A stretch of DNA of 63,525 nucleotides, counting the filler, from Kipferlia bialata (lineage: Eukaryota): NCBI GenBank assembly GCA_003568945.1. It is 6 parts of 6 records of this genome, joined end to end, with 100 filler letters (N's around TTAATTAATTAA, not from the genome) between each part and the next. Parts side by side here need not be neighbours in the genome. Positions count along the whole stretch, not along the records: positions 1 to 13,218 come from BDIP01000977.1; 5 more parts are not named here. The stretch is one strand, 5' to 3'. Below, one piece after another: positions 61 through 37,629 of this stretch. The notes beneath the pieces were generated by a model, which made no database searches, was not told the DNA's origin, and was given only the letters and a program-made list of their open reading frames with translations. Every line of letters starts with the position of its first letter. The first letter of the stretch is position 1. The translations under genes were made by a program, and so were the position numbers.

Positions 61-367
61 TTGACGTCATCATGGCCAGGGCACAGGCAGCAGGTACAGA
101 GGATATGCATAGTATACATATGGTTCTTCACATACAAGTATTTAGTACTATTCATACATCTAACCATCCAGGTGTAGACAACATGATTGTCCAAGCAGGA
201 CATATACTAACGGGATCTACCTCTACACAGTACATTACCTATGTATATATATAGAAACTCTCTAACTCACTAGGCGTTGACAAGATGATTGTGACCGTTG
301 GGTCCAAGCAAGATATCGAGGGGGCACTGGCACTGTGCAGGCAGTACCCAGGTATATATGTGTATAT

Positions 368-408
<41 letters not shown>

Positions 409-3400
409 GGACATCGAGGGGGCACTGGCACTGTGCAGACAGTACCCAGGTGTAAACGTCTCTACAGTAGTCAAACACACATATATATATGAAGGGATAT
501 ATATGTATGTATTTATAGAGAGAGAGACAGTTATCTCCAAGAGAGTTAGGACACCGAGGGGACAAGCCGCACTTTCACTCACCCTCAGACAAGATATACT
601 TGCATCTCTCTCTCACTCACTCTCTCTCTCCCTGTCTTACCCTCAGGCAAGATGTACATGACCCTTGGCATCCACCCCACAAGGTATAGATATGTATACA
701 TGTCTTTCATAATTGTCTTACTTACAGGTATGTACTTCATACATATACTTATGACTATACATGTATATATATACTTATGGCATATGATGTACATGACCCT
801 TGGCATCCACCCCACAAGGTATACAGGAGATATCTTCCATACAGATACATACCTGTATTACACACGTATATATACATATGATTATATATATATGCAATAT
901 ATACATATGACACTCTTTGTACATGACCCTTGGGATCCACCCAACAAGGTATATGACATGTATTCAACTATATCACCCATAATTTGCACAATATCTGTAT
1001 TCTATCGGTGAATCTCTGTACTCACACCAGGTCCAAGCAGTGGAATGCCAAGATGCAGTCTCTCTCTCTCTCTCTCTCTACTCACACCAGGTCCAAGCAG
1101 TGGAATGCCAAGATGCGCTCCGAGCTGCACTCCCTGTTGACAGAGCATGCACGGACAGAGGCCAATCCAGAGGGTATATACAGTATACATATACATATAT
1201 GTATATAGTAGATATACATTGTAGATATATAGGAGTAGACACTGATTTGGAGTGTAAGTTTCTATTCAATATTCAACTTACCCCTGGGTGCGTTGTGGCC
1301 TATGGAGGGTACATGCTGGATATACACACTATAACTTTATATACTAATAGATACATGTTGTACTATATATAGTAATAGATACATATTATCCCTCACTTCA
1401 GGCTGCGTTGTAGCCTATGGTGAGTTTGGCCTGGACTACGACAGACTATATATATATATATATACAACACACTATATATGTTTTAGTATCCAAGTATATT
1501 CATCACAATTACCACTCCACTAACCTCTAGGTTGTGTCGTTGCCTATGGTGAGTTTGGCCTGGACTACGACAGACTATACAACATAGTATACACTATATG
1601 TGTATTATCCAATTGTGTGTTGTATAGCCTTTGCTACTGCTGTTGTACTTACTTACCTTAGGATGCGTTGTGGCCTATGGTGAGTTTGGCCTGGACTACG
1701 ACAGACTGCACTTTGCAGACATGGAGACACAGAAGAGGGCATTCAAGGTATGTGTACACTATACCTACAGTTATACATACCATATGTGTACTATAGGGAC
1801 TATATACTATATACTAAATACTATACTATGTGTATGATATATATAATACATACTGCACTTTGCAGACATGGAGACACAGAAGAGGGCATTCAAGGTGTGT
1901 GTACAATTGTATATACATATACGCTACCCCAGGCCCAGCCCCCCCCCCTCTCTCTCTACATATATCTTTATAAGGGTATATATATACTTACATATGTATC
2001 AGCTTAACCCTAGGCCCAGCTGGCCCTTGCCTCTTCTATATACTTACTCCCCTTTCTCTTCCTCTCTCTCTCTATATATATATATAAGGGCATGTATATA
2101 CCCTTTACCCCAGGCCCAGCTGGCCCTTGCCGCTGAGTTCAAGCTGCCCCTGTTTCTGCACGAGAGGTATATATTTTGTATATATAGATATATTAGGTTA
2201 TAAGAAGAATCTATATAATATATGTATTGAGTATCTATAATACATATGTATATGTGTATATATGTGTGTGTGCCACAGGTATATAGATGCCATATCTTAT
2301 ATTGTCATAGACCTGAATGAATAGAGAAGTAAGGGGATCCATGAATTCTTCAGTTCAGTTTGTCTAACCCCCAGGGCCGCAGCTGAGGACTTCCACTCCA
2401 TCATAGGCCCATACTCCGTGGCTACAAAGGGTATGTCTGCGGTAATATATACAAGCATGAATATACCCTCATCTTGCGGTATTGTTACTACCATTGAATC
2501 TTCTCTCTCTCTCATGGGAAGTAATTACTTTGAATTTCCCAGTGGGAAACACTGAAAATATAGGCTTATCATTGAGAATCACATGCAATCGAGACAGGCG
2601 ACCTATATGATTATGATGTAATGATATATTGTCTACATCTCTTACCCAACAGGCCAGGATGGTCTGGGTGGAGTGGTGCACTGCATATATAATGACACAT
2701 GTATACATTCATATATGAGTATATATATGTACATGTAGTCATATGCGCATCACATATATACTCACCCCAGGCCAGGAGGGTCTGGCTGGAGTGGTACACT
2801 CCTTCACAGGGGACGCAGAGGGTCTGAAGGTATCTACATACATGTGGGTATATGGCAGTATATCTATATATGTGTGTGTATCTAATGGTCATTCACAGGG
2901 ACGCAGAGTGTCTGAAGGTATAGTATGTGTATATGTACTTGTGTGTCTCGATATATGTATGTGTGTGCCAGTGAGGCATTTACAATACCGACATACCTTG
3001 GTTGTCTTACACTAGGGCCACAGCACAGGCTTTGACATCGGTATCAACGGGTGCTCTCTCTCTCTCTCTCTCTACATACTCTATATAGATATCTCTCATA
3101 CTAGGGCCACCTTGCCCTAGGCTTTGACATTGGCATCAACGTCTGATCTGTATGTCTCGCTCTCTCTCTCTCCATCCCTTCATATTCTATGAAAATGTAT
3201 ATAGTCTAACTGCTAGGGCCACCTTGCCCTAGGCTTTGTCATTGGTACCAATATTATCTCTCCNNNNNNNNNNNNNNNNNNNNNNNNNNNNNNNNNNNNN
3301 NNNNNNNNNNNNNNNNNNNNNNNNNNCTCTCTCTTTATATATATATATGAATATATCTTACTGCTAGGGCCACCTTGCCCTTGGGTTTGACATTGGCATC

Positions 3401-3488
3401 AACGGGTGCTCTCTCAAGAAGGAGGAGAACGTCACAGTGGCATCTATGGTGCCACTGGATAGGTGTGTATGCTCTCTTTTCTTTTTTT

Positions 3489-3531
<43 letters not shown>

Positions 3532-6500
3532 TAATATATATGTATATGTGTCAAGAAGGAGGAGAACGTGACGGTGGCATCAATGGTGCCCCTAGACAGG
3601 TACATATAATATAAGATACATCTATCTATATATATCAAGTGTACCACTGGATAGGTACATATGATATAATATACACCTATATGTATATATATATATATTT
3701 GTATCCAATATAGCGATGGTACTTAGAAGGAGGAGAACGTCACAGTGGCATCTAGCGTGCCTCTTGACAGGTGTGTATAATACATGTAACACACATTATT
3801 GTAACATATTTGTGTGTATACTATACTATGCATATGAGGCGGTGAACGTGACAGTGGCGGCACTGATACCCGTAGTTGGGTTATGGTATTAGATTGGGAT
3901 TGTATCGGCGCTGTTCCTCACATTTGTTCCTCTTGTACACAGACAATTACACATTGGCATGTGTATATATACATGTATACTTACCCTTAGGCTGCACCTT
4001 GAGACGGACTGCCCCTGGTGTGACATCAGGGCATCTCACCACGGGCACAAGGCAGTAAAGACACGGTATGTAGTAAGCCATATGTACATATATATATGTG
4101 TGTAGAGAGGTTTCATTATAGTATCATACACCACGGACACAAGGCAGTAAAGACACGGTGAGTGCTCCAAATGGATATGGAACCTGCAGTACTATTGATC
4201 ATCTCTGGATATATCTCTTCTCTATATATCCTTATCCTCAGCCCCTACAAGCCCATCAAGAAGGAGATTATATAGTATATTTGCGTAGAGTCTTTATTGG
4301 TATAAATCAAATAGCATGTATCTATATTGTTTAGAATCCCTATATTTACCCCAGCCCCTACAAGCCCATCAAGAAGGAGAAGTACGTGGTGGTGGACAGG
4401 CCGGAGGAGGTGGGCGTCTGTGTGTATGCAATGTAATTCATTCACAGACATATACATATATATATATATATTCATTGAAGTGGTGGACTCCATATATATG
4501 TGTGTATAATGTATATATACATTTGTATGTACTGTACCCCGGTGCCCGTGTTGTCAAGAGCAGTCTCTCTCTCTCTCTCTCTCTCTCTAAGTATACTGTG
4601 TACATGTATACTATCTATATACTTATCACTAGGGTTGTGCCCCCGGTGCCCGTGTTGTCAAGAGCAGGACAGAGCCATGCCACATCGTGGAGGTGGCAGA
4701 GGTGGGTAAAGAAAGAGAACAAAATTGCAGAGTTGACTATTCTGTCACTATAACCATGTACACTCTACTTGTTGTTTAAATAGACACTCTAACCCTCTAG
4801 GTCCTGAGCGTGTACCACTCCGATGAGACATGCAGAGACATGGAGGCACTCACAGAGAGGGTGTACAACAATACCATGAAGTGAGTATATATATGTATAT
4901 ATCTATATATACAGTCATTTTTTAGTGCTACACTAGAGTTTATAGTAGCATTAGACACGTATATATGCATTTTATGTTTAGGAATTGTTACATATTTCGT
5001 ACTATAGTATACTTCCAGTACCTCTCCCTCATCTACACACTTCTAAACATTTAGAGACGTCATTCTATTTGTGCGGTACGAAAGTGTCTAATAGTAGAGT
5101 AGATAAAGGCAGTGTTACATTAATTTGTATTGAATAGTACTTTACTAGTACCCCGCCCTCACCCTCAGGATGTACTTCCCCATTAGGGGAGTATATATAT
5201 ATGCATATATATATATATATATGAGTGTGTCGTATATACATACTACCTCTCCCTCACCCTCAGGATGTACTTCCCCCCTCTTACAGCCGAGGCCAAGGTA
5301 TGTGCCTCTATATGTACTTACCGTTAGTGGGTCCAATAGCAAAGGATGTCTACTCCCCTCCCCAGAGGGGAGATAGGGGTGTTAATTGTTAATGTATTTA
5401 ACCCCAGACCACTGTGAGAGGTGCCGGGGAGAGACAGAACGAGGTTGAGATATCAGCCAAGGATGTGCAGAAGGACTACCCCGATGTGCCACCCATGTAC
5501 AATGCAGAGGGTATGTATAATATACACATATCAGACAATTTGTATATATGTATGTGTGTATTGATATATATTGAGAGAGAGCTACAGAGTGGCTACCCCG
5601 ATGTGCCACCTGTGTCCCCAGCAGAGGAAAAGTATAGTATATGGAGAGAGAGAGAGGAAATGGTCGAGCGTTCTGGTGTGATCCCCATGTATACAGTATA
5701 GGGATGCGTATATACTGATTAATGACCCCATATCTGTATTACTATTACATGTATACTTACTAACCCCAGGCACCGAGCTCCCCTGCCATTCTGAAAAGTA
5801 TATAGTAGACGTACAACATGCAAGATATATATGTGTATATATACACTGTGATACACTGTTTTTACTTTGCTTACTGCTTACTATAGGCGCCGAACTACCC
5901 TGCACCCTCCCTGCCATTCTGAAGAAGACATCCCTCAACACATGCGTGGTCACGTGGCAGGTGTGGTGTATATGTGTATACCATATATAATGAATTATAT
6001 ATAGAATACATATACTATAAATGTGTTGTCTATGTGTATCCCTCAACACACGCGTGGTCACGTGGCAGGTATGGTATATATTAAAATGCAATATTTGATA
6101 TAATGTATAATATGTATAACATGTGTAATATATGCTATGATTACATTTAACTAATACCAGAGAGATGTGGGCACCTCCATGAGACTTATATATATATACT
6201 AATATCTATGATATTGTTATTATTACTATATGTTGTATATATATATATATATATACATGCTGATGCCAGAGAGACGTGGCCACCCCCCATGGTGACATAG
6301 TGGAGCCCAAGGGCACACAGAGAGGGGGCCTCACTGCCTCATGGTACGTAGATAGCTAACTGTATATGTATACATATGTATATATATTAATACCTGTGTA
6401 TATATATGTATGTATGAGTGCTGTCTATGGTACACAGAGAGGAATCCTCACTGCATCATGGTGAGTGGAGTATATATCAGATGTGTATATAGGTGTTTAG

Positions 6501-7057
6501 TAAGATCTTTATATACATACATTCTATGCACATTTCTGACTATGATTCCATACCTGGACCCAACCAATTGGTCTCCTCTAAACTCGCTCTCTCTCCATAT
6601 ATATGATTATATATATGATTATATAATTGCCCATCTGACTTTTAGGTGGGCCCCAGTGAATGGGTCCCCCCTCACCATTAGTATATCTCTCCCTATTAAC
6701 TTACCTATCTCTCAACGTTCCTATATAGAAATACACTCTTGTCTTATCCTAGGTGGACCCCTGTGAATGGGTCCCCTCTCACTCTGGCCGTGTCAGTAGG
6801 GCACAAGAGATACAGTCTGGCACCCATTAAGGAGGTGGGTGTATGTGTGTACGTATATGTATATATATATACATATGACTGTGTCAGTGGGGCACAAGAG
6901 AATCCTATTGGGTAGTAGTGTCATAGTTGATACGCTTCTGATATCTGGTTGTATTCTTTCTCTGCCCTCTTCTCTAAGTATGTCTCTCACCCCAGACTGG
7001 CTCCTTCTGTCTCAACGTGCTCCACCCCTGCCAGGTACCAGTCTGTTATGCTATCTC

Positions 7058-7095
<38 letters not shown>

Positions 7096-8171
7096 GTGGC
7101 AGATTTGTGGTATCCTTAGGTTGTTTTCTCTCACTTAGTGTGCTGTCTTAACCTCTATTTCCTTATTCCTCACCCCCAGGTCGATATCGCCAAGGGCTTT
7201 GGCTATGCCTCTCAGCACCTCCTGCAGGGTAAGTAGGAGACTATATGTATATATATATATATATATACATATGTATATAGACATTTGTGAGTATATATAT
7301 GCGTGGCCATGTATGGTTATGGCTATGCCTCCCAGCACGTCCTGCAGGGTATGGGTATTTATGGGTAATTTTATGTATAAATGTATGTCTAGATATTTAT
7401 ATATGTATATACCTGTATACATCAAAGTGCATATAGTATATACTATATATTTATGTATACATGAATGAGAATTTTTCTTTCAGTTCTCCCGCTTCTCTCT
7501 CATCATCTGTCGATGATATTCTTTGCATTTCTCTCTCCTAATCTCTCTCTATCTCTCTCTCATCGTAGACAAGGACAAGTTTGACCTGTGTGGTGTCACC
7601 CCCTCTACCGGCCCTGTCCTTGGTATGCCTGTTCTGCCCGGGCCTATCAGCTTTGAGTGCAAGGTAACTCTCTCTCTCTCTCCCCATATATGTGTACATC
7701 CCTTACCCCAGGTCACCTCTGTCATGTCCATGTCTGACCATGACCTGATTGTGGGACAGGTATAGATATACTACTACACATTACAAATACATAGTTTCAA
7801 TACATATGGGAGTATGTGTGTAGTTTCAGTATATTCATGCATAAGTGTGTGTGTGAGTGTGTATCATCTATATAGTACTATCCAACCATATTACAACATT
7901 GTGAGTCTTTATCAACCTCCAAGTCGTGTGACGACACTGTGTGCTCTCACTCAATAGACAAATATAGTTGGTGATGAGACTCTTCTCTCAGGTCGTTGCC
8001 TGTGTCTCTGGTGATGACACTGAGGATGTATCCAAAGATATATATACATATCTATATATACGTATATACATTATACTTGTCTTACGCTAGGTCGTAGCCT
8101 GTGTCTCTGGTGATGACACTGAGGACGGTGACAGCAGGAACCTTCTGGCGTCATTCGTCAAGATGTTCTAA
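55..8171 (+). CDS. tatD: TatD-family DNase (TATDN1-like), 5' partial, apparently fused to a C-terminal flavin-reductase-like domain; about 23 exons
   Basis: Phase-compatible GT-AG exons 55-93, 274-351, 647-683, 1091-1173, 1662-1747, 2114-2166, 2375-2430, 2771-2829, 3368-3462, 3991-4065, 4355-4409, 4633-4701, 4801-4880, 5264-5297 give the TatD motifs GIHP, GEFGLDY, LPLFLHER, GVVHSFTG, GINGCSLK, LETDCPW and EP. There is no stop after 'NNTMKMYFP'; the frame continues to TAA at 8169-8171. Confidence 0.9.
1286..1896 (+). repeat. Exon-echo array around TatD exon 1662-1747
   Basis: Partial copies of the exon 5' end at about 1286, 1402-1447 and 1531-1577 (the latter two with their own AG). A copy of the exon 3' half plus GT lies at 1852-1896. 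Confidence 0.9.
3015..3880 (+). repeat. Exon-echo array around TatD exon 3368-3462
   Basis: 5' echoes at about 3015, 3104 and 3216 (GGCCAC...GGCTTTG). 3' echoes at 3551-3601, about 3644, 3725-3773 and a degenerate one at about 3836-3880. Confidence 0.9.
3264..3326. other. Scaffold gap inside a TatD intron
   Basis: 63 N with no linker motif, flanked by CT-rich sequence. Confidence 0.95.
5887..8171 (+). other. Flavin reductase-like (split-barrel, flavoredoxin/DIM6-NTAB type) domain exons
   Basis: Exons 5887-5960, 6270-6343, 6753-6834, 6996-7035, 7180-7228, 7569-7663, 7712-7759, 8091-8171 translate to ...GGLTASWWTPVNGSPLTLAVSVGHKRYSLAPIKETGSFCLNVL...AKGFG...DKDKF...PVL...FECKV...SDHDLIVGQVV, the family pattern. 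The 7035/7180 junction is not phase-resolved, so a micro-exon is probably missed. Confidence 0.8.
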
Positions 8172-8749
8172 AGGTGATAAGAGCATTCAGATAGTACAGA
8201 AGGTGTTCAGAGCGTCATTCAGATGGTATGTGAGGGAGAGTAGCAGATGTTCGGGAACCTTCTGGCCTCATTCGTCAAGATGTTCTAAGGAGGTTCTAAA
8301 TATGTTCTAAACCAATGAATTTCATTAGCCAATAGACAATGGAACCAGGGGTATATATGACTTGGGAGCGAGATGTTGATACTCAAGAGAAAGTGCGATA
8401 TGGCCATATGTCTAGCCGTACTGACTCAGTGCTACTGCTTCAGTACTACTGCCATAGAGGGCTCATTTGGTTGAAAGGGATACACTGTCATTCCAATGCC
8501 GGATACATTGCAGGCCTCCCAATGGGAGGCTCCCATCCACTTATAGTGCCACGAAACCGTGTCAGTCGCAATTTCAATACATGCTGTATGATAGAAGAGT
8601 AGTCACAGTGTGGACACTCATTCATCCTCTCTCTCCAGCATACATGTCTACTTAGTCTTTCTATGGGCTATACGCTCTCTGCTATCCTCGTTGTACCCCA
8701 CTCTCACCTTCTTTCTCCAGGCATCTAAGTGTACTTACAGAGAGCATCA

Positions 8750-11700
8750 CTAAAATGTATTACTCTCCCTCTTATCCACGTTGTAACCCCACTCCAGGTC
8801 AGGGTGAGGATACATCACCTGCGGGAGGTACTGCACAAGCCTAAGTGTAAGTGTACACACTATAGGGATACATCTCTTCTGTTACATATGTACATATGCA
8901 TAATATATATGCAATGCATAGTATGCATCCATACCTCGCTGTCCTCATGTCATCCATGACCAGGGCAGTACATACCAATGACACATATATAGTATAGATA
9001 TATATATACTACACACGTATATGTATATAACCATGTATGTATACCTCGCTGTCCTCATGTCATCCATGACCAGGGCAGGTACATCTCAAATTGTGTGCAA
9101 TAGTCAAAAGTACCAACATATACACTATAACTGTAGTATTAGTACCTAGCTGTCCTCATGTCATCCATGACCAGGGCAGTGTCTGGTGACATATATATAT
9201 GTACTGAATACCTATCTATCTATCTATCTATCTGTCTATCTATCTATCTATCTATCTATATCTATATATATAAATATATATACATATGTATACCTCGCTG
9301 TCCTCATGTCATCCATGACCAGGGCAGTGTCGGGTGAGACCAATACACCACCAGTGGGTCGAGTGCTGAACTGCATATGAGTACTGATGGTGTATGAATA
9401 TATATATATACGTACATATATATATATATAGAGTTATGGGTACATATATATGTATATAGATACCAGTACACATCTAGTGGGTCTAGTACTGAACTGTGAT
9501 GAGTTGCCTACATGTGTACATACATATACACACAACATACTTTGCACTTATACATCAATTAGCACCAATCACATTTCTTGTGTACCTTAGATATATCCAT
9601 ATATATTAGTATGTATAGTATATACCTGGATTAGTTCCTTCTCCCCCCATATCTCCATGTCCCCTGATATGGTGTCATACACTATGCACTNCCTTCTCCC
9701 CCCATATCTCCATGTCCCCTGATATGGTGTCATACACTATGCACTCTGACACAGTCACCAGGCCATTGGGACTGTACACGACAGAGGGTATCACGAGGAA
9801 ATGGCCGATGGTAATAGCCTATCAGTAAGAGAGAGAGAGAGAGACTAGCCCATTGGGACTGTACACGACAGAAGGGACAACAAGGAAATGGCCAATGGTA
9901 ATAGCCTAAGTGTTAGAGAGAAGAGAGACATAGAGAGAGACTACACCAGTGATACTGACAGTGGCTAATTGTAATTGCATGTTAAAGTAAGCCTACCCTT
10001 GTATATTGAGAGAGAGAGAGACACATGCACGCACAAGGCCGTTTGGAGTGCAGAAGACAGTAGAGAATACATCTATACTCTTGCTGCCCCCCATTCCCAT
10101 CTGCCACACACTCTCTCTCTATATCCCTCTTTCCATCTATCTGTATAGATATGGATATGTACATATCTATATATATACCTTGGCTGCCCCCCCATTGCCA
10201 TGGGTCAGACTCATGTAGGGCAGGGTGTCCTCTTTGTGCCACCCAGTGGCATGGTTATAGGTCACATGGGTACGGCCCCTATAGATGAGAAATAGATGAG
10301 GATATATGTGTAGCATACTATCTCTTGTGACAGCTCACAGAGAGTATATATCAATACACCTTAGAAAGTGTTCCGTGTCCCCCACTGTGCCATGATAATA
10401 CACATACTATATACACTTCATATAAATGTATATTAATATGTATACACACATATATGCATACATACCTTAGGAAGTGTGCCGTGTCCCCCACTGCACCATG
10501 GTAATACCCAGTCAGAGGCATAGTACATAGAATACATTTATATCTATATCTATATGTGTGTGTGCGTATGTATATACTATAGAACCTCAGAAAGTGTGCC
10601 GTTTCCCCCACTGCCCCATGGTAGTACCCAGTCAGAGCCTTAGGGCAATCAGGTAGACAGGTCCACTCTCCTGGGGTTAAATACTATATATCTATATAGT
10701 ATTTAGGTGTATGTATATATACTGTCAGAGACACAGTTGGGAAGACAAGTCCAATCTCTATTTGTAAATATGTAAAATATATGTAGATACATGCGAGTTG
10801 TGTATGTGAATATATGATATACTACATCCCTCTATATATACAGATAGATATATCTATATATACTATATGTCCCTCACCACTCAAAGGGTCTAACATCCAG
10901 GCCTGAAGAGAGTGATGTCCTCGATTCTGCCTGAGGGTTAGAGTAGTAGTATATACATTGAATAGAACTACACAAATACAGTAATGACATATATGCATAG
11001 CCATAATTGACCAGATGAGAGTGATGTCTAAGGGTTAGAAGGCAACAGAACTCCCTATACACACACACATATATGTGAATATTCCATAAATACAGATACC
11101 TTGAGTACAGACACATATGCATTCCTATATAATGTATATTCACCTCTGATCCCAGAACTCGCCCCCTGTCACGAGTAGATGTTCATCCAGTGCTAGCATG
11201 GGACCAGGGATGTGGTCATTGCCCCTCCTGGAGTTATGATATTGTCTAAATGTTAGTACTTCGCATATGTTTATACATATATGTTCTCTATATGTGAGAC
11301 CATCCAAGGCTAGCATGGGAAATGGAATGTGGTCATTGCCTCTCCTAACGTTAGATTAGTATTATAGCTATGTAATTTATACACACATTGTATGACACAT
11401 ATACTATAGGACACAGAATGTGGTCGTTGCCTCTCCTAGAGGTGTTAGTGTATGTACATATAGTATTACATATAGTATTACAATAGTACATACATAATAC
11501 TATGAATATCAATACCTCTTCCTAGTCTTGAGCCCAGGTGGATTGCATGATACAATTAGAAAATACAGTACATATGTACAATGTACACACATCATATACA
11601 CACACATATATATATGTTATTCCCAGTACCTCTTCCTAGTCTTGAGCCCAGGTGGATTCCCGTAGTTCCTATCCCACTGCAGGACTGGCTCTCCCTCTCC

Positions 11701-12987
11701 CTCACCCTCTGTATAGAGTGCATCACTATCAATCTCCACCCCTCTGAATGTATCTCTCTCTCCCTCTCTCATAGCATACACTGCCCCACTATCAATCTCT
11801 ACCCCTCTGAATGTGTGCCCATCATAGCACACTAACATACCCTGCACAACACAGAGAGACACATTCCTCTGCTTGATACAGACAGTGTCAGTGGAGTGTA
11901 TGGCTATACTAGAGAGACTTGAGGGGCTAGGATTGTCGGCTGCCTCGGTCTCTGTCTCTTTGCTCTGAGGGAGTGTGCTCTGTGAACCAATGTGCATTAT
12001 GCGGCGCATGTACCCTACTACCCCACCTGACATCCTACCAGTGGGGTGTGCAGGGGTATCAGTCGCTTGATCTCCCCCTAGAGAAGAATCAGTCTCACAG
12101 GCATTTGTTGTGTCAATGCGTATGATACGGCACTGATAGGTTGGGTTTCGGCCTCCACCCATCGGGGAGTCACACACACATAGCAGAGTGTGGTGGTCAA
12201 GTCTCACCGCACAGTATACACCTGACTGTGAGTATATCCATAGGATATACATATAGCATATAGGTATGGTGTCACACCCACAGAGGAGAGTGTGGTGGTC
12301 TAGCTTGACAGCACAGTACACACCTGAGTGTGAGTATATACACATATAGTATACATAGAGTGTAGGAACAAAGTGACAAACACAGAGGAGGGTTTGGTGG
12401 TCCAGCTTGACACAGCAGTAGACACCTAGGGGATCAGAATATATGATATACTGTGACATAGCATATATATATGCTATATATATATATATAGCTGTATAGA
12501 GCTCTAAATATAGAATAACAGAGTGTGGTGGTCCATTATGACAACGCAGTATACACTTAGAGCGTATTAGAATAGAATGTATCTGTAAGTACCTCGTGCC
12601 CATAGCACCTCCTTCAACTGTCTGCGAAAGGTCAAGATACTGTGCGTGTATATCTTTCATCTCTATATATACACTCACCTCGTGCCCATAGCACACCCTT
12701 CATCTTTCTGGACACTAGGGCATGCTCACATGGCATGGAGGCTGGGGATAAGAGAGACAGAGAGAAACAGAGGGGGGACAGAGAGAGAGAGAGAGAGAGA
12801 GAGAAGGAGGCTGTTAGACAAGTGGCATATACGTTGAGGAAAAGCGAGAGGGAGTACGAGAGTGGAGAGAGAAAGAGAGAGAGAGAGAAAGGTTGAGAGA
12901 GACATAGAGACAACCTGTGGGCCTCCGGTGTCTTCTTGAGGGATATGGTGCTTGTGGATGCCAACACTGATGTGGAGGGTCATATTG
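8750..12987 (-). CDS. Hypothetical Kelch-like/beta-propeller protein, multi-exon
   Basis: Minus-strand exons give GVYCAVRLDHHTLLCVCD, LTGYYHGAVGETAHFLR, VTYNHATGW, AITIGHFLVIP...CIVYDTISGDMEIW, GGVLVSPDTALVM and a last exon LVQYLPQVMYPHPDLEWGY ending in TAG at about 8750. Start not resolved. Confidence 0.6.
8932..9329 (-). repeat. Four near-identical copies of a ~37-nt exon 3' end plus donor
   Basis: GCTGTCCTCATGTCATCCATGACCAGGGCAG at about 8938, 9048, 9149 and 9297, each adjacent to TACCT (a minus-strand GT donor); spacing about 100-150 nt. Confidence 0.92.
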
Positions 12988-14755: not shown

Positions 14756-15140
14756 GCAGTGCGACACACGGGACAAAGACGAGAGGGGTATTGCTCGTGT
14801 TGAGGTTTTTGCCTATTCCACCCTCTCACAGCAGCATTTGGTTTGGAGGCCAAAATATCGATAGATACGTCCCAGCGACCCATCCCAACAGAAATATACA
14901 TTTATGCCTCCCCTGCAGCGTTTTATCCCCATCCCTGACATCTCCAACAAGGGGAGAGAGAGGGTGGGGGGTGGTACCCCTATACCTCAGAGAGACACAA
15001 GCCTTGCGCAGCGAGCTACTATGCCTAGTCTACCTGCCCCACGCACTCTAACACAGGCACTGGACACAGCCTACTACTAGTCTAACTGACCACTGGTCTA
15101 CCCACTAGCCATAGCCTACTACTAGCCTTAGCCCCCCAGT

Positions 15141-16672
15141 CTACCTACTTGTCTTGTTGAAGTATGCAAAGAAGTCGTCCTTGATGGGCTGGTCCTCTCT
15201 CTCCCGCTGCAGCTCAGAGGCAGTCGTGGCACGCTTCTCCTGGTCCTGGGGGTTAGGGGTATATACTATATACTACTTATGTATACTATATGTGAGTGTA
15301 TATATATATAACATGCCTGGTATACCTGTGCCCCCAGCACCCCATCCTATGTTATACACTATATAACCATCATATACATATACTATACATACACATGTAT
15401 ATATACATGTATGTATACTACTCCATGCCTGGTAGACCTGTGCCCCCAGCACCCCCATCCTCTGCCTCCTGACCTCTCTCTCATGCGCATTGGCCTGGGC
15501 ATGAGAAGGGGTAGTATATACATACACAATATACACAGTGCATTGCAACACTATCTCTCATGCGCATTGGCCTGGGCATGAGAAACGAGGTACACACATA
15601 TGCATATACACACATACAATGTGTACTGTAACACTACTACTCTCTCATAAGGAGGGGGGGTATGAATGGAAGACATATACACATACACATACACACGTAC
15701 CCTTCTGACCAGCTCCTTGTCGTCCCTGAGCTGCTGTCTCTCTCTCTCCCTCTCGGCCTCTCTCTCCTGCCTCTCTCTCTCCCTCCTCTCCTCACCCTGG
15801 GCCTTCAGTCCGGCATAGCCCTCAGTCACCTGGGGTCAGTAGGGTGTGTATATGCAGTATACATCAGTAGATACCAATACATACATACACATATACATAT
15901 ATTGTCAGGCATAGCCCTCAGTCGCTTGGGTGAGTATGATTGTATAGATAGACACAGATAGATATATTAATACGATGCAAAAGACATGAACACTCTCCAG
16001 TATAGCCCTCAGTCACCATACATATCATACATATATTGACAAACCGTCTAGACCACCATACCTGCTCCTTGGACAGGCCCTTCATGATATCCACACACAT
16101 ATACATATACAAATATATATATGTATATATATACATTCGCATGTGTATATCCCCACCTGCTCCTTGGACAGGCCCTTGAATGCATAGGGGATGAACCTGC
16201 CTGGGGGTCAGCGGGTTCAGCAAACACTTCAACACTGGGAATACAGATATGTAACATTATGTCATTAACCTATACATCAATATACCTGGCAGCTGCTCTG
16301 ACATTGGGACGGACAGTGTCTCATCCACCATACGGGCATTGGTGCTGGGGTGAGGATATGTATATAGATATAGATATTTATAGATATGCAATGAAGACTA
16401 CACCAATTAGGAATGGTGTCCATTACACAATACACACACCTCCAGTGTATCTGGTTCTGCCTCTCCTCCTCCTCCCTCTCTCTCTCTCTCTCTATCTATA
16501 CATAGATACTAGTATATAATATACCTACACACTATACATACCTCCAGTGGATCTGGTTCTGCCTCTCCTCCTCCTCCCTCTCTCTCCTCTCCTTCTCCTC
16601 TCTGTTGGCCTTCAGCTGCAGGTTCAATGCAGCCGTGTCGGCCTGGGCCTGTCTCCTGGCCTGGGGGTCAAG

Positions 16673-16705
<33 letters not shown>

Positions 16706-16861
16706 CATACAGATACATATACATACACATACATACAGACACACATACAGACTGATACAGAGTGATACTGACACTGCCCCCTCACCTCTCTGTCCCTCCT
16801 GGCCCCGGCCTCCATCAGCTCATGGACAGTGGCAGCGTCCCTGGGGTCAGTGTACAGTATA

Positions 16862-16893
<32 letters not shown>

Positions 16894-18567
16894 CTGTGGT
16901 ACACATATCGAGTAGCAAGAAACAGTGAGTATCTATATATGCATATCACTTCTGTTTCTACCAACACACACCCACACACACCTAGCCTCTGCCTCTGCCA
17001 GGTTGGGGGGGTAGAGTATAGATAGAGTAGAGTATGTTGTGGTCAGAGTCTCTCTCCATACCTAGCCTCTGCCTCTGCCTCTGCCTTGGCCTGGGCAGCT
17101 ACTAGGGCGGCACTGGGGGTGAGACACCATTATGTATATTCGTATATATCACTACTTCAATACATCAAACAAGGGCGGCACTGGGGGTGAGACACAGTTA
17201 CATACACATGAACCTATACATACCTCTACAATTCACATATATACATATATATGCCCATACCTAGCCATGTGCTGCCTGTGCCACTGCTCTGTCTGGTGCT
17301 TCTGAGAGGCCATCCTTGGTATTAGAGAACATATGTGGTGTATATAGAGGGTGTATATAGAGGAAGTGTAGTACATAGGGAGTATATAGTATATCTATCT
17401 GTCTGGTGCTTCTGGGAGGCCATCCTAGGAATCAGGGGGGGAGGGGGGTATACAGATATACAGAGGGTGTCTATGTGATAGAAAGGACAAGACACACCAG
17501 GTGTATTCATGTATATACATGTATCTGTATATCCATAAGTGTATACCTCTGCTTGTACACACTGTCCTCCCCGTCAAAGAACTGGCCACTGGACACTCCG
17601 AGGGTGGGGTCAACCTCGCCAAAGGCAGGGTCACGCCTGGGTGTTAGAGGGGGGAGGGATATGCACAGACTACATATATATGGGAATGAGTGAGGAGGAT
17701 ACAGAGAGAGGTATGCATAGCCGCTCTGTCTACACGTATATATTCATATACACCTACCTGATGACGTGGTCAGCTGATGGTGGCAGCTGGAGGTCGGCCT
17801 CCCTAGTAGCAGCTGGGGGTGAGGATAGACGAGGACCTCATATGGGTATGAAGAGAGGGGTGGGCATACACGGGAACACGGTTGTGCGTATGTAGAGAGA
17901 GCTCTCTGACAGCAGCTGCGATGATGCCAGAAAGGGGGAGGGTGATAGAAGAACTGACCTGGCTCACAAGTGAAGCACAATACCCAAGTGTACTGTATAT
18001 GCACCTATGTCTATTAATAATAATCTTCATGCGCCATTACCTGGGTTTCTGCTGGCGTTGGCCATGTCGTGCTGCCTGGCAATCATACGGCGCCTGGGGG
18101 TAGAAGGGGGGGAGGGGGAGAGACTCGAGACTATAAATATATCCATAGAGGGAGGCTATCCACTCTCCATGCTGCCACAGACACCCTACCCACCCCCTAC
18201 CCACCTGTACATGTCGTCCCTCTCCGCCTGGCTGACTATGGTTGCACACTTCTTGAGATCAGAGGCGATCTGCTCGTTGGCCTCTCTCTCGAGCCTCTCT
18301 CTCTCGAGCCTCAGCCGCACACCCTCATCCAGTGCAGCCTTATCCACCTGCATAAGAGAGGGAAACAACATCTAGATAGACCTCACTGTCAACATACTGC
18401 TATAACTGTGACATAGAGCCAGATATAAGCACCAAAAGATAGGGTTGGTCACTCACCCCAATCTGACGCTTCTTGCTGTCAAGAATACGCTCCAACCGCT
18501 CCTTCTCTAACCTCTTGGTGCGGTCAAGTGCCGCTCCCGATCTCCCGGAGTCCTGTGGCCCCCACAT
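15141..18567 (-). CDS. RIB43A: RIB43A-family ciliary microtubule inner protein
   Basis: Spliced translation contains ERILDSKKRQIGVDKAALD, DPTLGVSSGQFFDGED, PMHFKGLSKEQ and the C-terminus DDFFAYFNKTSR*, the hallmark RIB43A/RIBC motifs, in a coiled-coil-rich protein. Confidence 0.9.
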
Positions 18568-18720: not shown

Positions 18721-21700
18721 ATGGAGGCTCCCACGAAACCTGTTCACAAGCCGCTGAAACTAGCCCTCCTTGTAGGTATGTGGAGAAGGTGGTGATAGTG
18801 TATATATGCGTCAGAGTGGCCCTCTGGATATATGCCTAAAGATAATGAAGGACTAATCTATACACCCGCATCACATCCTGATTGCCTATGCTGTGTGGAC
18901 CTCATCACTGATCCCATACACTGTGCTTCTCTCACCAATAGGCAGCTCCTGGGCTGTGAGCCAGCTGGACTACAACAGCACACAGGTACAGGGCATGTAT
19001 ATGTATGACATCCATTCAGTACACCTTGTGTATGGGTATGCGTATGTATGTGATGCTTACTGCCCAGGTGTGTGTCCCCCTGATCCAGCAGTACTATGGC
19101 CTCCCCGAGTCCAGTGTGCAGGTGAGACCCATACACTGTGACTTATGTCACAATGTCCATACACTGTCAGGGTCGGATATGGGTTGTGCTCTAAAGCCTT
19201 GTCAGCCATTCATGTATGTAGTGTAGAGGAATAGGATGCAATAGCTCACCTTCAGATGTGTCTCCTCATTCCACGTCTCTCTCTCTCCCTCTCTAGTCAA
19301 TGCATCTCTTCCTGATCTCGAATCACTCTAGTATATGAATTAGCTGTTCCTCTCCCTCTCCACTCTGTGTCCTCAGGATATGTACATTCTGCGTGTATCC
19401 TACTGTGTGTATAGTACTCTCTCCCACATAATACATCCCTTTGGGGGTACTCCTCTAGAAGGTTCTTCTTATCCCCAGTGGAATCTGGATATTGCCTCTA
19501 TTTCCATGATCTTTGTCTTCTATTCTTATCGTGTGTCTCTCCCTCACCCCCAGTGGATCCAGATTCTGTTTCCCATCTCATTTGACTGCTGCTAGATATT
19601 CACTAGTATATATATCTGAATAATACGCCAATATATTCTCTATTTGATGAATATGCTCATATGCAACCTCACCCAGTGGATCCAGATTCTGTTCTCCATC
19701 TCCATCGCATCTGTGTCTGTGGTGGCAGGCAAGCTGGGGGATAGGCTGGGGGGAGACAGGTATACATATATATATGGATATGTATAATACTGTGAATAAG
19801 AGTATATGTACATTGTGACAGGCAAGCTGGAGAGAGACGGGGGGGACAGGTGCGGTAAACCATATGGAATCACGTTCATGTATACTGAAGTTTCCTCACC
19901 TCAGAGTGCTAAAGTGGTCTCTCTTCCTGTCCTTACATACATCCATATATACCGTATCGATTACGATTATATATATAGGTATATACCCATATGTATACCA
20001 ATACACATGCCAATCCTCACCTCAGGGTCCTCAAGTGGTCTCTCTTCCTGTCCTTCCTGCTCAACCTAGTGCAGTACTGGGCACCCACATTCAACGTCAG
20101 GCTGGGGGCCAGGTATGTTTATATACTTATGTATATATACATTTACCATATAATGTGTACCTGATATAGTACTGGGCACCCACATTCTATGTGAGACTGG
20201 GGGCTAGGTGGGTATATATGAGGATATATCCTCATGATCCTAGTGTCGTGTGTATGGCATGGGTATTGTATAGATATGTGCATATATAACAACGAATTTG
20301 ACCTGCCTTACTCTACATATCTCACCCCAGGATCCTTGTCTCGACGGTGTATGGCATGAGTACTATTATGATTCTTATACACTGTATATATATATATGCT
20401 AGTATATCTATACCCACCCCAGGATCCTTGTCTCCATGGTGTATGGCATGGGGTCAGCCAACTCAGGGCCAAACTACCTGCGGTGGGTGTGAATATATAT
20501 ATATATATATCTTCTAGCCTATACATCTTGTAATGTTGGTCATTCCTTTGGTATGTTGATATGTCTGTTATCGCAGCCTTCCCCCTCACTCACTCACCCA
20601 GCATCGCAGGCCCCAAGATGCTCCCCATGTGCCTTGCCCTCCATACACTAGTGGGTACGGGGCAGTGAGGATGTATGCATACCCACGTACATCTATAACA
20701 TACATACACATACACATATATATGTATGTGCCTCACTCCAGGCACCGTTGTCATGATCCTGTCCCCCATCATGGCATGGATACATTGTATATATAGCATA
20801 TATATATAGTATATACTCTATCAATGTATGATTATATATGAATACTGACCCCAGGCACTGTTGTCATGATCCTGTCCCCCATCATGGCTGGGTATGTCGC
20901 TGGTCTGTCCGATGACCCAGCCAACCCAACATGGCCTTACATATACCTAGGTGCATGGGTTGTATGTATGTAAATACAACTATTTATGGGCAGTGTGCTC
21001 AATGATCAAGTAGATGTCACAGTATGCGTGTACATGTATATGAATCATTGTATGCGCTACACTCGTTTCTTACCCTCATTAGTTTCCCCTACTTGTGCTG
21101 CTGCATTTTCTGGTAGACAGCCAGCGTGAATCTATAGTATTATATTTGCTATTATATATGTATGTACTCTTCTGATACCAGTTATGTCTGCCCTTGCCTT
21201 TGTGTGGTGGGTGGCCAATGCATATATATATTGTTATAGTAGCGTATGACTATATGTGTATATATATATGTGTGTGTCTAATACCAGTCGTGTCTGCCCT
21301 TGCCTTTGTGTGGTGGGTGGCCAATGTGCTCTACCTACCCAAGACAGACAGAATCAGTGAGGGGGCATTCGATGGGGTGAGTGACTCTGTATATATATAT
21401 ATGTGTGCATGTATGTATTTATATATATTAGTTGTATGTGGGTAGTGTAGATAGGATCAGCGAAGGGGGCTTTCGATGGGGTGAGTGACTCTGTGTATAT
21501 ACACACCATTTGCTGTCCCCTCACCCCCTAGCTAGGCGGACTCCTCTTCACCCTTGTGACCCTGTCCCTGGTGTTTGGACTGGCTGCCATACCCATGGAC
21601 ACAGTGAAGGTATGGAATATACAACTGATATGTATATAGATATGGTACTAATACCAATACTAATACATATGTGTGAACATACACACTGGCTGCACCCCCC

Positions 21701-24700
21701 ACCCTTCAGATGCTGTACAGCCTCCCTTGTATCTATTTATCTGTATAGTATGCAGACACTGTATGTGTTTTACATTGTGTTCGTGTATACATTCACCATA
21801 TCCCTCTCCCTCCAGATGCTGTACAGCCTCCTAGTATTGTATATGTGTTGTATATAGACACTATATATGCATGTACATACATTCACCATATCCCTCACCC
21901 CATAGATGCTATACAGCCTGCTGTCCCTGACCCTCTGTGCGTGTCTGCTGCCTGTCCTGTTCTGGCATGAGTCGAGGTACCTTGTGTATACATGTGTGTA
22001 TTTGTTAGGATATTCATGTATACATGTGTATGTATCATGTATATATCCACTGATACTGATACTGTCCTATTCTGGCACGAGTCGAGGCACGGTACACTCA
22101 TCACACTATTGGACTCTCTCTCTGTGTGTGTATGTATCCATGTACTTTCTTCCCCCAGGCACCCCACCCCCATCATCCCCACCAAGCTCCTGTCCCACAA
22201 GAAGGCCAAGAACGCCCTCATGGCTGGCATATTCTTCATGGTGAGGTATTTATGTATATATATATATACACACACCTTGAGTGTTCATCTACTGTTGATG
22301 CCACGAACCCTCCTGATACCCTTGACCCTATGCTCTACATACATTTGTTATATCACACTAACCCCTTAGATCTGCATCCAGTCCCTGATGTACTTCTTCT
22401 CCTATGTATACTTGTACCATATATACAAACTATATACACTCTACTTCACTATATATATACATGTACACATACATGTCTCTCCTATCCTAATCCTAGATCT
22501 GCATCCAGTCCCTGATGTACTTCTTCACCTATGTGTTTGAGTGGGTGTTCCACCTGGACGTGGGCACAGCAGGACTGTGCATGGCAATCACCCCTGTGGG
22601 TACGTGGTACATGTCTATACTAGTGTATGTGAGTGGCTAGTATCAATACCATCCCTCACCCCCAGGCATCGCTGTGTCCTCTGTCCTGGTGGGTAGGGCG
22701 ATGCAGGTGGGTGCATGTTCATCATTCTACACTCATAATACATTTAGTATTTATAAATATGATATTATATTGCCCTGTTACTTAACCCCCCAGCGCATAG
22801 CCTCCCTATCCTTCTGCAATATGCGCATATATATGTGTCCTGTTTGGCATGACCTGCTGATATATGTATGCATATACAAGTATAGATATACAAATACATA
22901 TATACTACCAGTGCTACACGAGCATCTAACCGCAGCGCATAGCAGCCCGCCCCATCCTGATGTTTGGCATGACATGCACCACCCTGGTGTGCATACCCAT
23001 AGCACTGGCAGTCATACCCTGTGACTCACTAGCCATGTACGGGACGATATATACTTATACTGTACAGATATGTAATCCAATTCTACTATATGAGTATGTA
23101 CCTCGGCCGTGATACCCTGTGACTCACTCACCATGTACGGGGGTTTATATGTATAGACATACAGACTCACGTATTCACTTGTATTCCATATTGTCACCTC
23201 CAGGTACGTGACCTCCCTGTCCATCTTCTCTGCCTATATAACGATATACCTGTATTGCTAATATGTATATATATACCATATAGTATGTGTATGTGTATAA
23301 CCTCAGGTACGTGACCTCCCTGTCCATCTTCTCTGCCTTTGCAGGCACCTTTGGGGTGACCAACCAGTCCAACCTGATAGCATCCATGCCTAGGTACATT
23401 CTATACTCTATGTATACTTACATATTCCAAGTCCATCAATGCCTGGGTCGGGAGAGTGACATGTGTACTGCAGTATGTGGATACCTATACCCTTACCCCT
23501 AGGATGTATGCAGGGGTGGGTGCACCATAGTTACTAAACTGCAGCATCTATATGATGCAGCAGTCTATATAAAGCATCTATATAAAGCATCTATAATATA
23601 TGTATACATATATTACAACTACTCATATCTCATATATCACTACCCTATACCTGTTATACTAGACACTGACCCCAGGATGTATGCCGGTGTGGTGGGTGCC
23701 CTGCTGGTGGCTGTCAACCAGGTAATGGGGGGTATCAATATATATATGCATATGCCACCGGCTGTAAAGTGTTAACAGGCATAGTATGTACTAGTCTCTA
23801 TTCTACACATACTCACCCCCCCAGGCCGGCAAGTCCACAAGCACTGCATGTATATATTTCTAATCTCTATCCCCCATGTACATTCTATACTTGCTGTACA
23901 ATGTCTCACCCCTTCAGGCCGGCAAGTCCACCGGCATAGCATATATGCAAATATGTATATATATTGTATGAGCTATATCTACATACATACTCTATACATA
24001 CTCATCCTCCGGCCGGCAAGTCCACCGGCATAGCAGCTGCTGTCCTCCTACAGAAGATGTATGCAACAAGGCTCAGTGGGTGGGAGGGGCCCATTCCGGC
24101 AGGTGCATTCTCTAAGCTGTACTGGTATATACTTGTGTATATTTACGCACCAACACTATATGTGTGGGTAGTGAGAGCGCAGGTTGAGTGGGTGGGAGGG
24201 GCTTATTCCGGCAGGTATGTCATGGGAAGACATACAGTGTGACAGATGTATCAACTACTATCCGTACACGAGTACCTACCCTACACTGTCATTATACCAT
24301 ATTTGTATATTATAGACCAATGTAGATACATTACATGTACCCATCATTGAATTACCATACTGACCCCCCAGGCGTCCCCACCCCTGAGTACCTCCCCTAC
24401 TACACCCGGTCCATAGTGTTTGTGACCCTGGCTGCCATGGTGTTTGGGGTGGTATCACTCACATGCATACCGGGGATCGGGTACTCAGAGAACGATAGGT
24501 ATAATGTATACATGTACTCTATACAGTATATGATATATGTACATACACCCTTACCCCCAGGGGCAACAGAACATGTATATATGAATGTATAGTGTGTATA
24601 TGTGATACTTAGACTAACCCCCAGGGGCAAGAGGTTCACCAAGGAGTCCCAGATATACATATGTATATATGTATATATGTATATGTGTATATGTACTCTA

Positions 24701-24947
24701 TACAATATGTATTATACATACATATACCCTCACCCCCAGGGGCAAGAGGTTCACCAAGGAGTCTCGCGTAGAGACTGTGACCCTAGACTCCGATGTAGTG
24801 AGAGAAGGGTCCAGTCTGCTAGACAAGGCCACACCCTTGGTGCACAGCAGAGACAGGAGGGAGGGGGAGGACACTGTATACACCATACCCTCCCAGGCAC
24901 ATGGGGTGGGGGAGGTGGAGGAGACAGAGTCAGATGACATTAGTTGA
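18721..24947 (+). CDS. MFS transporter, DHA2 (EmrB/QacA-like) type, many exons
   Basis: MEAPTKPVHKPLKLALLVGSSWAVSQLD..., VQWIQILFSISIASVSVVAGKLGDRLGG (motif A), FWHESRHPTPIIPTKLL, further hydrophobic exons, and a stop at TGA 24945-24947. Confidence 0.85.
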
Positions 24948-26609: not shown

Positions 26610-26669
26610 TAAAATTCATTTTACTATATAGTAACTGCATTTTACTATATTTTTGAAACCCTAGTCTCG

Positions 26670-28663
26670 ATGGCAGAGCTGTCTCTAGTATTCAAGGTAA
26701 GTGATCATTATCTCACCACTCCGCCATCGTCTTTTGCCACTCTCACGCTAGGCCAATGGAATAGCGGTACCCAGCAAGACCCCAGTACCCACTCCTGTGA
26801 TGATGACCCTGACTCAGGGTCCCTGAGTGACCTGGATCTGCCGGACAAGGACTTCTGTTTCTCTCTGCTTCAGAGCACGGACAACAGTAGATGTCCCAGC
26901 CTCAAGGACTCTGCCATTCAGAGGAGCATGGGAGAAGGGATGCCATCTGACCTACCCAGGGGGTCAGGCTTAGGCACCACCATCCACCAGTACATCGCAC
27001 TGGCGGGTGGGGGAGACGGCACATACAGAGTGATAGTGGGTGCTGACACTGCCACGCACAAGGCAGTGCTGGGTATGATGCAGCCGCTACTCATGACTCT
27101 GCCCATGAACCCAGGGGCTAGAGCTGCCCTGGTCTCTATGGGAAAGGTGGTTCCAGACCCGCTACAGGTCACAACAATGTGTCTCTCCCACACTCTACCA
27201 CTACCCGCCAAGTGCAGGAGTGTCACTCCCCTAGTCATACCACACCTGCAGCCACCTAGGCACTGCGCCGAGTCTGCTGGAATAGTGGAGTACGTCAGAT
27301 CCTACCCACTCTCTCTAATAGGTATAGAGCTCTCAGAGCGCAGTGGGTGGCACTTTTCGATGTCAGCTGAGAAAGAGACTGGGGCTGAGGGTCCGTTCAA
27401 CACAATTGAACTCCAGTCACACGAGGGAGAGTCTATTACCATTGCACTGCCGGAGTATGCAGACAGGGTGTTCCACTTTGACCAGACCAACACACGCCTG
27501 GTGGGTGTAAGGTTCCTTCATTCACCCCTAGTGCCCCAGGAGATTTCAGTACCCAACACCCTCCACCCTATCCCTGCTCACCCTGAACTTTTCAGAGCTG
27601 CACTAGCAGAGGACGGGGGTGGGGCAAGAGGCAAGGAGGCAACCAAGCGGCTAGGTGCTGTGGTCCCTCGTGCCAAGGGAATAGTGTCTAGGGACACCTT
27701 AATCGGAGATCTACCAGTTGCTATGAGGTATTATGCACCCTCCCTGTGTGCCAAGTGGAAAGGCAAGACAGCTGACAAACCCAGCATGGCCCAGGTGCAG
27801 CGTGTCTTGAGGGGAGTCCCTGATACCTGCCTCCCCCACTGCATGCTGGAGGTGGAGTCTATCCTCATGCGCATGTTCATCACCCTAGGAGCACGTGCCA
27901 AACCAGCACCTGCGGCGTTTGTGATGGCCCATCAAGGTACCAGTCTGGGGCTGGTAGTGGTTGAGCCCGCGCTCCACTCTCTGGTGGGTGGGGTCTTGTG
28001 CATTCGGGGTGTTGCCATGTGTCCCGAGTGGCGGGATGGGTACAGTTATGACCTAGCCGTCATAGACGAGGAGGTCAACCGGTACATACCACTGCTGAAG
28101 GCAGCTGGCTACACTGTTACCACCATCAACACCCTCACACAGCGCACAGCAGGTGGTTTTGCGTCACTACAAGAGAGTGCCTCGACATGTGTCCCTCACC
28201 TATTCAAGGGCTTCCACCCCCTCTCTGTGCTGCCAACCGAGGTACACGAGTTCTCTTTCAGCCGTCACTTTGCCACACCAATAGCTCTTATGCGGAGACC
28301 TGTCCGCAGCAGTGTCCACCTAGATGGCATGAACACAACCAGATCCCAAGCTGAAATTGAGGAAACAAGGGAGAAGTATGCATCCTCTGAGATACTAGAC
28401 AGGTACTGTGGCAGAGAACTGAACCTGATGTTCCCTCAGATGTGGTCACGACTGCAGACGCCATCGCCCATGGTGCTCATGTGGAGTCTCTACAACAATC
28501 AGGTGTGTGTATGTGTACTGTGTCATCAGTCAGGTCAGGACACTGATTTTACAGTCTATACGTTGCACTGTTGCTAATGTCTTACACTTAGGAAGTGAGG
28601 GAGTCCACGCTGACTATGAAGGGTGCAAAGGAGAAGAGAGACTGGGAGGTCACAAAGAAGTGA
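26670..28663 (+). CDS. Hypothetical intron-poor protein (~600 aa), possibly 5' partial
   Basis: 635-codon ORF with coding-like composition. Probable introns near 26697-26750 and 28503-28591; last exon EVRESTLTMK...TKK* ends at 28663. No family recognised. Confidence 0.75.

Positions 28664-37588: not shown

Positions 37589-37629
<41 letters not shown>

Follow-up and report, generated by a model that had tools for sequence, protein, structure and literature searches.

Introns of a TatD-family gene of Kipferlia bialata carry, besides their own splice sites, additional copies of the ends of the neighboring exons, often complete with GT or AG. Such copies (here called echoes) raise the question of which sites the spliceosome uses, and of how an intron comes to hold several ends of the same exon. 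An earlier note on this DNA had described an ordered, onion-like arrangement in consecutive TatD introns (real donor, echo donors, echo acceptors, real acceptor) and had suggested that the spliceosome either skips the decoys by strict exon definition or removes nested introns from the inside out. The window, i.e., the whole stretch of DNA that was analyzed, has a length of 63,525 nt and consists of six K. bialata pieces joined by N linkers. Four genes with 83 introns were catalogued, with K. bialata database proteins used for the models:

72–8172, + strand: TatD and flavin-reductase-like gene as annotated, 22 introns (exact P0001 parse; the contig may lack the true 5' end)
15140–18567, − strand: RIB43A gene, 13 introns, 8 echoes
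18721–24947, + strand: MFS transporter gene with 19 introns and 20 retained echoes (25 synonymous and 8 nonsynonymous differences)
33143–39596, − strand: MutS-family gene, 29 introns, mostly short and echo-free, 7 echoes

P0001 is a TatD-family database protein of K. bialata with Pfam matches to the TatD_DNase (E 2e-42) and Flavin_Reduct domains, while single exons of the window give a weak TatD match only. Exon 1664–1747 matches P0001 exactly, and the exact spliced parse of the protein places every one of the 22 TatD introns between its outermost GT and AG. One boundary of the MFS model (intron 23722–24011) was set by hand, the RIB43A model was ended at an in-frame stop, and at one intron of the MutS-family gene the outer of two equal parses was chosen. 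Ungapped matches of at least 13 nt between an intron and a flanking exon were accepted as echoes, and matches with more than 50% low complexity were dropped. The substitution analysis was based on 66 of the 68 copies (those that are anchored or have a score of at least 14). The features in the first TatD introns are as follows:

274–351, + strand: real exon, donor GT at 352 (spliced parse)
410–451, + strand: donor echo, 40 nt of the exon 3' end with 2 synonymous changes, GT at 450
578–599, + strand: short acceptor echo, AG ending at 588, 19/22 nt, below the catalogue threshold
647–683, + strand: real exon, acceptor 646, donor 684 (spliced parse)
786–820, + strand: donor echo with 33 identical nt and GT at 819; its intron flank is unrelated
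918–950, + strand: donor echo, 31 nt with 2 synonymous changes, GT at 949
1013–1056, + strand: acceptor echo with branch region and AG ending at 1030, 26 nt of identical exon start
1091–1173, + strand: real exon (spliced parse)
1287–1576, + strand: three acceptor echoes, at 1287–1305 (AG decayed), 1402–1447 and 1531–1576
1662–1747, + strand: real exon (spliced parse), present in the spliced RNA contig
1848–1896, + strand: donor echo, about 46 nt, GT at 1895
1924–1939, + strand: short acceptor echo, AG ending at 1932, 15/16 nt, below the catalogue threshold
2004–2034, + strand: acceptor echo with AG ending at 2013 and 21 nt of the exon start
2114–2166, + strand: real exon, acceptor 2113 (spliced parse)
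3551–3858, + strand: four donor-side echoes of exon 3368–3462, no RNA contig depth in the bin

All splice dinucleotides that had been reported for the introns starting at 352, 684 and 1748 were found in place (GT at 352 and 450, at 684, 819 and 949, and at 1748 and 1895; AG ending at 588 and 646, at 1030 and 1090, and at 1932, 2013 and 2113). The three echoes at 1287–1576 differ from their exon by 7 changes, all of them synonymous, and donor echoes are absent from their host intron. On visual inspection, an in-frame indel of 12 nt separates one echo from its exon (5771–5797, + strand), and the deepest echo of intron 3463–3990 still reads as a diverged TatD-like peptide (3837–3882, + strand).

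The echo architecture is real and common in this window. Exon-end copies were found 68 times in 166 adjacent exon–intron pairs compared with 5 times in 308 non-adjacent control pairs, and 38 of the 83 introns carry them. Of the 29 copies of an upstream exon, 25 extend to its 3' end and none to its 5' end; among the 39 copies of a downstream exon, 33 extend to its 5' end and none to its 3' end. The splice dinucleotide is intact in 23 donor echoes (GT) and 30 acceptor echoes (AG). Wherever an intron in the four genes has both kinds, the donor echo precedes the acceptor echo (11/11 introns, 16/16 pairs); the onion order extends beyond the TatD gene. Echo density is uneven, with 31 echoes in the 22 TatD introns versus 7 in the 29 MutS introns.

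The duplicated unit measures 55–173 nt (median 106), of which 13–49 nt are derived from the exon. No anchored echo exceeds 49 nt (0/53), although 20/53 would be expected if breaks were uniform, and stubs shorter than 55 nt are scarce. Internal exons are short (median 74 nt, range 34–143). A size window for exons was tested as the cause of the spacing and found no support, as the offset does not decrease with exon length (rho 0.19, p=0.22) and the echo at 588 would yield a normal exon of 95 nt. All 70 direct repeats in the window that are not of low complexity lie less than 600 nt apart; beyond position 39888, only 3 repeat pairs are found among those listed. A duplication spanning one donor places the second copy downstream of the real site, and one spanning an acceptor places a cut-short copy upstream. 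The onion order thus follows from the geometry of duplication across a single splice site and requires no splicing explanation. The reverse order should produce a pseudo-exon and hence be purged.

The most surprising feature, overlooked in the earlier note, is the silent-site bias of the echoes. Over 1831 nt, the 66 copies differ from the real exons at 121 positions, of which 77 are synonymous and 44 nonsynonymous, and codon position 3 holds 85 of them (pS 0.18, pN 0.031, pN/pS 0.17). When the positions were shuffled 5000 times with the substitution types kept, on average 33.5 and at most 50 synonymous changes were obtained. The synonymous share of 0.64 compares with 0.43 for a dead copy beside a fully constrained exon (p=5e-6). 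The bias persists when only the nearest echo is taken (57:36 synonymous to nonsynonymous, p=3e-4) and for changes private to an echo (18:11, p=1e-4) or private to the nearest echo (7:3, p=0.006), and the donor and acceptor sides each depart from the dead-copy model (p about 0.001). The nearest echo of exon 3368–3462, for instance, has 6 synonymous and no nonsynonymous changes in 49 nt. By gene, the ratios are 43:27 for TatD, 25:8 for MFS, 3:3 for RIB43A and 6:6 for MutS; the bias rests on TatD and MFS, and RIB43A and MutS are not significant alone.

The exon-derived part of the echoes is 93.6% identical to the real exon, with divergence that is not overdispersed (p=0.14). The intron flanks are nearly unrelated: ungapped identity is 0.34–0.36 versus a background of 0.29–0.32, even beside perfect copies of 33 and 44 nt, gapped identity is 0.64 versus 0.62, and none of the 53 flanks reaches 80%. 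A weak residual likeness extends about 10 nt past the GT, and 10–12 nt beyond the splice site in a few echoes, and donor pairs agree at position +3 in only 35% of cases. This gradient, in which nonsynonymous sites differ far less than synonymous sites and these in turn far less than intron, looks like the pattern of two working alleles. The conservative bias that would be expected of amino acid replacements in a sequence that is still translated is absent from the echoes, and 3 stops occur among 36; the non-conservative replacements and stops indicate that the echoes are without coding constraint now. Four codon columns show three silent states among the copies, which points to several donor haplotypes.

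Given the directly observed copies, their polarity, unit size, silent bias and near-unrelated flanks, and the use of the outermost sites in the main RNA contig (see below), the echoes are probably skipped exon-end copies with splice sites that originated from the off-register joining of two divergent alleles. The left part of one allele would end past a splice site and the right part of the other would start before it, so that the interval in between is doubled. With an interval that crosses a donor, the first copy would complete the exon and the second would become a donor echo. With one that crosses an acceptor, the first copy would be cut short and remain as an acceptor echo. Purging would remove intervals that cover a whole exon or a whole intron. 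Until the join, each copy would have been evolving as a working exon, followed by neutral decay, which would account for the stops and non-conservative replacements. Later unequal exchange between echo and exon may build the arrays, and each event would add about 100 nt to the intron.

This allelic origin is inferred from how substitutions are distributed in two genes. Divergence is higher in the flanks than at the silent sites (pS 0.18), so that a fast turnover of introns between alleles has to be assumed. The cap at 49 nt, the spacing and the scarcity of stubs below 55 nt are left without explanation by the joining of alleles. A second allele was not found: each of the four proteins forms a singleton cluster, the DNA run X1 shows one sequence, with only one variant letter listed in 10.3 kb, and a metagenome scan with P0001 returned 45 loci from 74 candidate stretches, all of them 30–52% identical and none from a close Kipferlia relative. 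Short-read assembly can collapse the youngest, identical duplicates, though not copies that are 80–95% identical, and such copies are lacking among the flanks too. The published K. bialata draft is described as a short-read SPAdes assembly (PMC5874029). Metamonads have been reported to be without canonical end joining, and in fornicates two Dmc1 paralogs are reported to replace Rad51A (PMC8516963).

An unlikely, more ordinary origin is a tandem duplication on the same chromosome across the splice site, with an echo that is neutral from birth and TA-rich flanks that have been scrambled by slippage. Such a duplication requires no second allele, gives the identical polarity and order, and agrees with the short distance between all 70 repeats and with the 10–12 nt that a few echoes share beyond the splice site. 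However, it predicts a synonymous share of at most 0.43 rather than the 0.64 observed, and neutral changes in the nearest echo, where 7:3 was found. It also predicts copies of intermediate age with alignable flanks, whereas no flank reaches 80%. Moreover, proximity of an echo does not consistently go with the highest similarity, as the echoes of intron 1174–1661 carry 4, 2 and 0 changes. Intrachromosomal gene conversion was rejected by reasoning, since it would lower and not raise the synonymous share. The earlier proposal that introns grow by duplication across the junction stands in part: intron length is about 128 nt plus 96 nt per echo (r=0.81), but plain duplication on one chromosome misfits the synonymous bias.

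Regarding the choice of splice sites, the claim that only the outermost pair yields the TatD frame was borne out by the parse of P0001, and splicing at an echo would introduce a stop or shift the frame for 50 of the 53 anchored echoes. The decoys look as intact as had been proposed: by a leave-one-out matrix, 11 of the 23 donor echoes and 19 of the 30 acceptor echoes score at least as high as their real counterparts. The acceptor echo at 1932 has a weak score (6.5 vs 13.3). Among the sequencing runs listed, none is recorded as RNA; one (X2) was treated as RNA, its type being a guess, and it behaves as spliced. Reads were placed on the first 10.4 kb only, and the 15 joints listed, with 144 further ones in the set, are all repeat-driven DNA joints. 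A 1346-nt X2 contig covers three real exons without mismatch, at spacings of 168 and 314 nt that equal the outermost model exactly. In 11 of 21 bins, X2 depth is accounted for by the real exons alone, and 14 of 29 echoes lie in these bins, among them every catalogued one of intron 684–1090. The other 10 bins, among them those with introns 352–646 and 1748–2113, show excess depth, which probably stems from microsatellite matches. A main transcript that skips the echo sites and uses the outermost ones fits the main RNA contig. The spliceosome likely chooses the sites nearest to each exon; with internal exons as short as these, a choice across the exon is the simplest rule. The first donor after an acceptor and the last acceptor before a donor would be chosen, and a single splice would remove the entire intron.

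Removal from the inside out, in which splicing would start with the inner echo pairs and end with the outer pair, had been put forward for these introns and seems quite improbable; it was not supported as a general rule, since intact decoys are of one kind only in 31 of the 38 echo-bearing introns and balanced in 5, and donor and acceptor echoes co-occur no more than by chance (Fisher p=0.58). The strength of the echo sites would allow it, and so would the innermost GT–AG spans, which in the 7 introns with both anchored kinds amount to 69–187 nt, a normal intron size. In intron 684–1090, with its two echo donors and one echo acceptor, strict inside-out pairing would consume the real acceptor and strand the real donor. 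Since decoys are mostly unpaired, the spliceosome must skip unpaired decoys anyway. No X2 contig depth was found on the echoes of introns 684–1090, 4066–4354 and 6344–6752, in assembled contigs, from which rare intermediates are lost; on intermediates this is weak evidence, and the counts of decoys are the stronger argument. Nested splicing also leaves the silent-site bias unexplained; it may occur as an occasional, harmless side path. Ratchet-type AG/GT sites are not enriched (1 in 83 introns versus a mean of 0.37 and a maximum of 2 in 30 shuffles), and the single site found is the acceptor echo of an exon that starts with GT.

A very improbable alternative is an assembly artifact in which pieces of several haplotypes were joined at microsatellites. 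Silent-site differences are typical of haplotypes, contigs do break at the repeats in introns 352–646, 684–1090 and 1748–2113, and an exact 54-nt tandem around a single N at 9637–9745 is probably a scaffold artifact. Against this, X1 contigs with an even depth of 415–454 cross echo, stub and real site with 0 mismatches in several introns and bridge echo and source at 1090–1442, 2093–3045, 3554–4437 and 5234–6208. The DNA analyzed here may itself stem from run X1, and the X1 pieces listed do not span the three introns just named; the single variant letter listed in 10.3 kb also speaks against mixed haplotypes. The view that echoes are decayed duplicates of whole exons that were once mutually exclusive would explain coding constraint on both copies, but it is scarcely credible, as none of the 68 copies extends over an entire exon and the inverse polarity, predicted for about half of the copies under random decay, is seen in 0 of the 58 that reach an exon end.

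The closest likeness is found in intron 7 of human F7, where a 37-bp minisatellite with 5' pseudo-sites has been described (PMC1557585). Here as there, the repeat unit spans the exon–intron boundary and the site nearest the exon is used; in F7, functional pseudo-donors after the real donor are reported to stay silent, with the most upstream one used, which provides a precedent for skipped decoys. As described, F7 is one locus with identical pseudo-sites at donors only, whereas in Kipferlia 38 of 83 introns are involved, with a mirror image at acceptors, units of about 106 nt, silent-biased exon parts, near-unrelated flanks and pseudo-sites that are not identical. In the intron gain by segmental duplication outlined in PMC3265369, a local duplication likewise copies splice signals and creates a new intron, whereas in Kipferlia an existing intron grows and none is new; stubs end in AG before donor echoes in 1 of 23 cases and start with GT after acceptor echoes in 3 of 30. 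Fungal stwintrons and nested introns are described as also holding several splice sites in one intervening sequence. In stwintrons, a splice element of the outer intron is split by the inner one, which forces two steps, whereas the outer sites in Kipferlia are intact (the outer GT and the branch/AG are contiguous in 22/22 TatD introns) and the inner ones are mostly unpaired. Dispersed similar copies as in introners were not seen within the window, all direct repeats being local. In Schizophyllum commune, alleles that are 14% apart are reported to recombine, preferentially in exons (PMC4209137); the abstract of that study describes no intronic leftovers of exon ends, and hyperdiversity in Kipferlia is inferred rather than measured. 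No description of intronic exon-end echoes was found in the titles and abstract openings searched, and a prior report elsewhere is possible; in the main text of the K. bialata genome paper, 'duplicat' has 0 occurrences (PMC5874029).

If the echoes derive from alleles, recombination in Kipferlia would become testable from sequence. The introns would then document, at the sequence level, that lineages of a free-living metamonad recombine, and a single strain would suffice to read population diversity (silent divergence about 0.18). For K. bialata, 87 of the 174 spliceosomal proteins are reported to be kept, and no snRNA candidates were found (PMC6679479). We lean slightly towards the wider picture in which introns would grow by about 100 nt per step through capture of the exon ends of other, highly divergent alleles and one genome would hold a layered record of several alleles per exon. 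A reduced spliceosome would ignore thousands of full-strength decoys by position alone. With real and decoy splice sites that are matched and equally strong, the introns form a natural collection on which position-based choice is testable at scale, and the echoes offer a stepwise route of intron growth.

Echoes can also mislead gene prediction: the MFS database model runs through the echo acceptor at 23917, translating TA-rich sequence. In the same intron (23722–24011), the outermost acceptor copy ends in CG instead of AG (24010–24011, + strand), while two upstream echoes keep AG; an in-frame AG lies 9 nt downstream of the CG, and a non-canonical site, a shifted acceptor or a sequence error may be involved. 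The RIB43A database model reads through an in-frame stop into the next gene (15140–15147, − strand). A consensus-like donor, G/GTGAGT, lies inside the real exon 1662–1747 (1680–1686, + strand) and in two of its echoes and is unused in the model. The TatD protein runs on into a flavin-reductase-like domain (residues 368–491; window 5408–8172, + strand), which is either a fusion or a merged annotation; the RNA contig listed reaches at least exon 5408–5510.

The MutS-family gene (33143–39596, − strand) is intact, with few echoes and many introns of 65–140 nt. Pfam domains III, IV and V were matched, and the search returned no match to domains I or II, a layout known from the meiotic MSH4/MSH5 group. 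Three long open frames on the + strand (26613–28577, 30132–32255 and 53480–56266, with 654, 707 and 928 codons) are unlike the small-exon genes around them and gave no Pfam match at the curated cut-off. On the first piece, a further, putative echo-rich gene is located at 8900–12700 (− strand), with up to 4 copies of one exon end.
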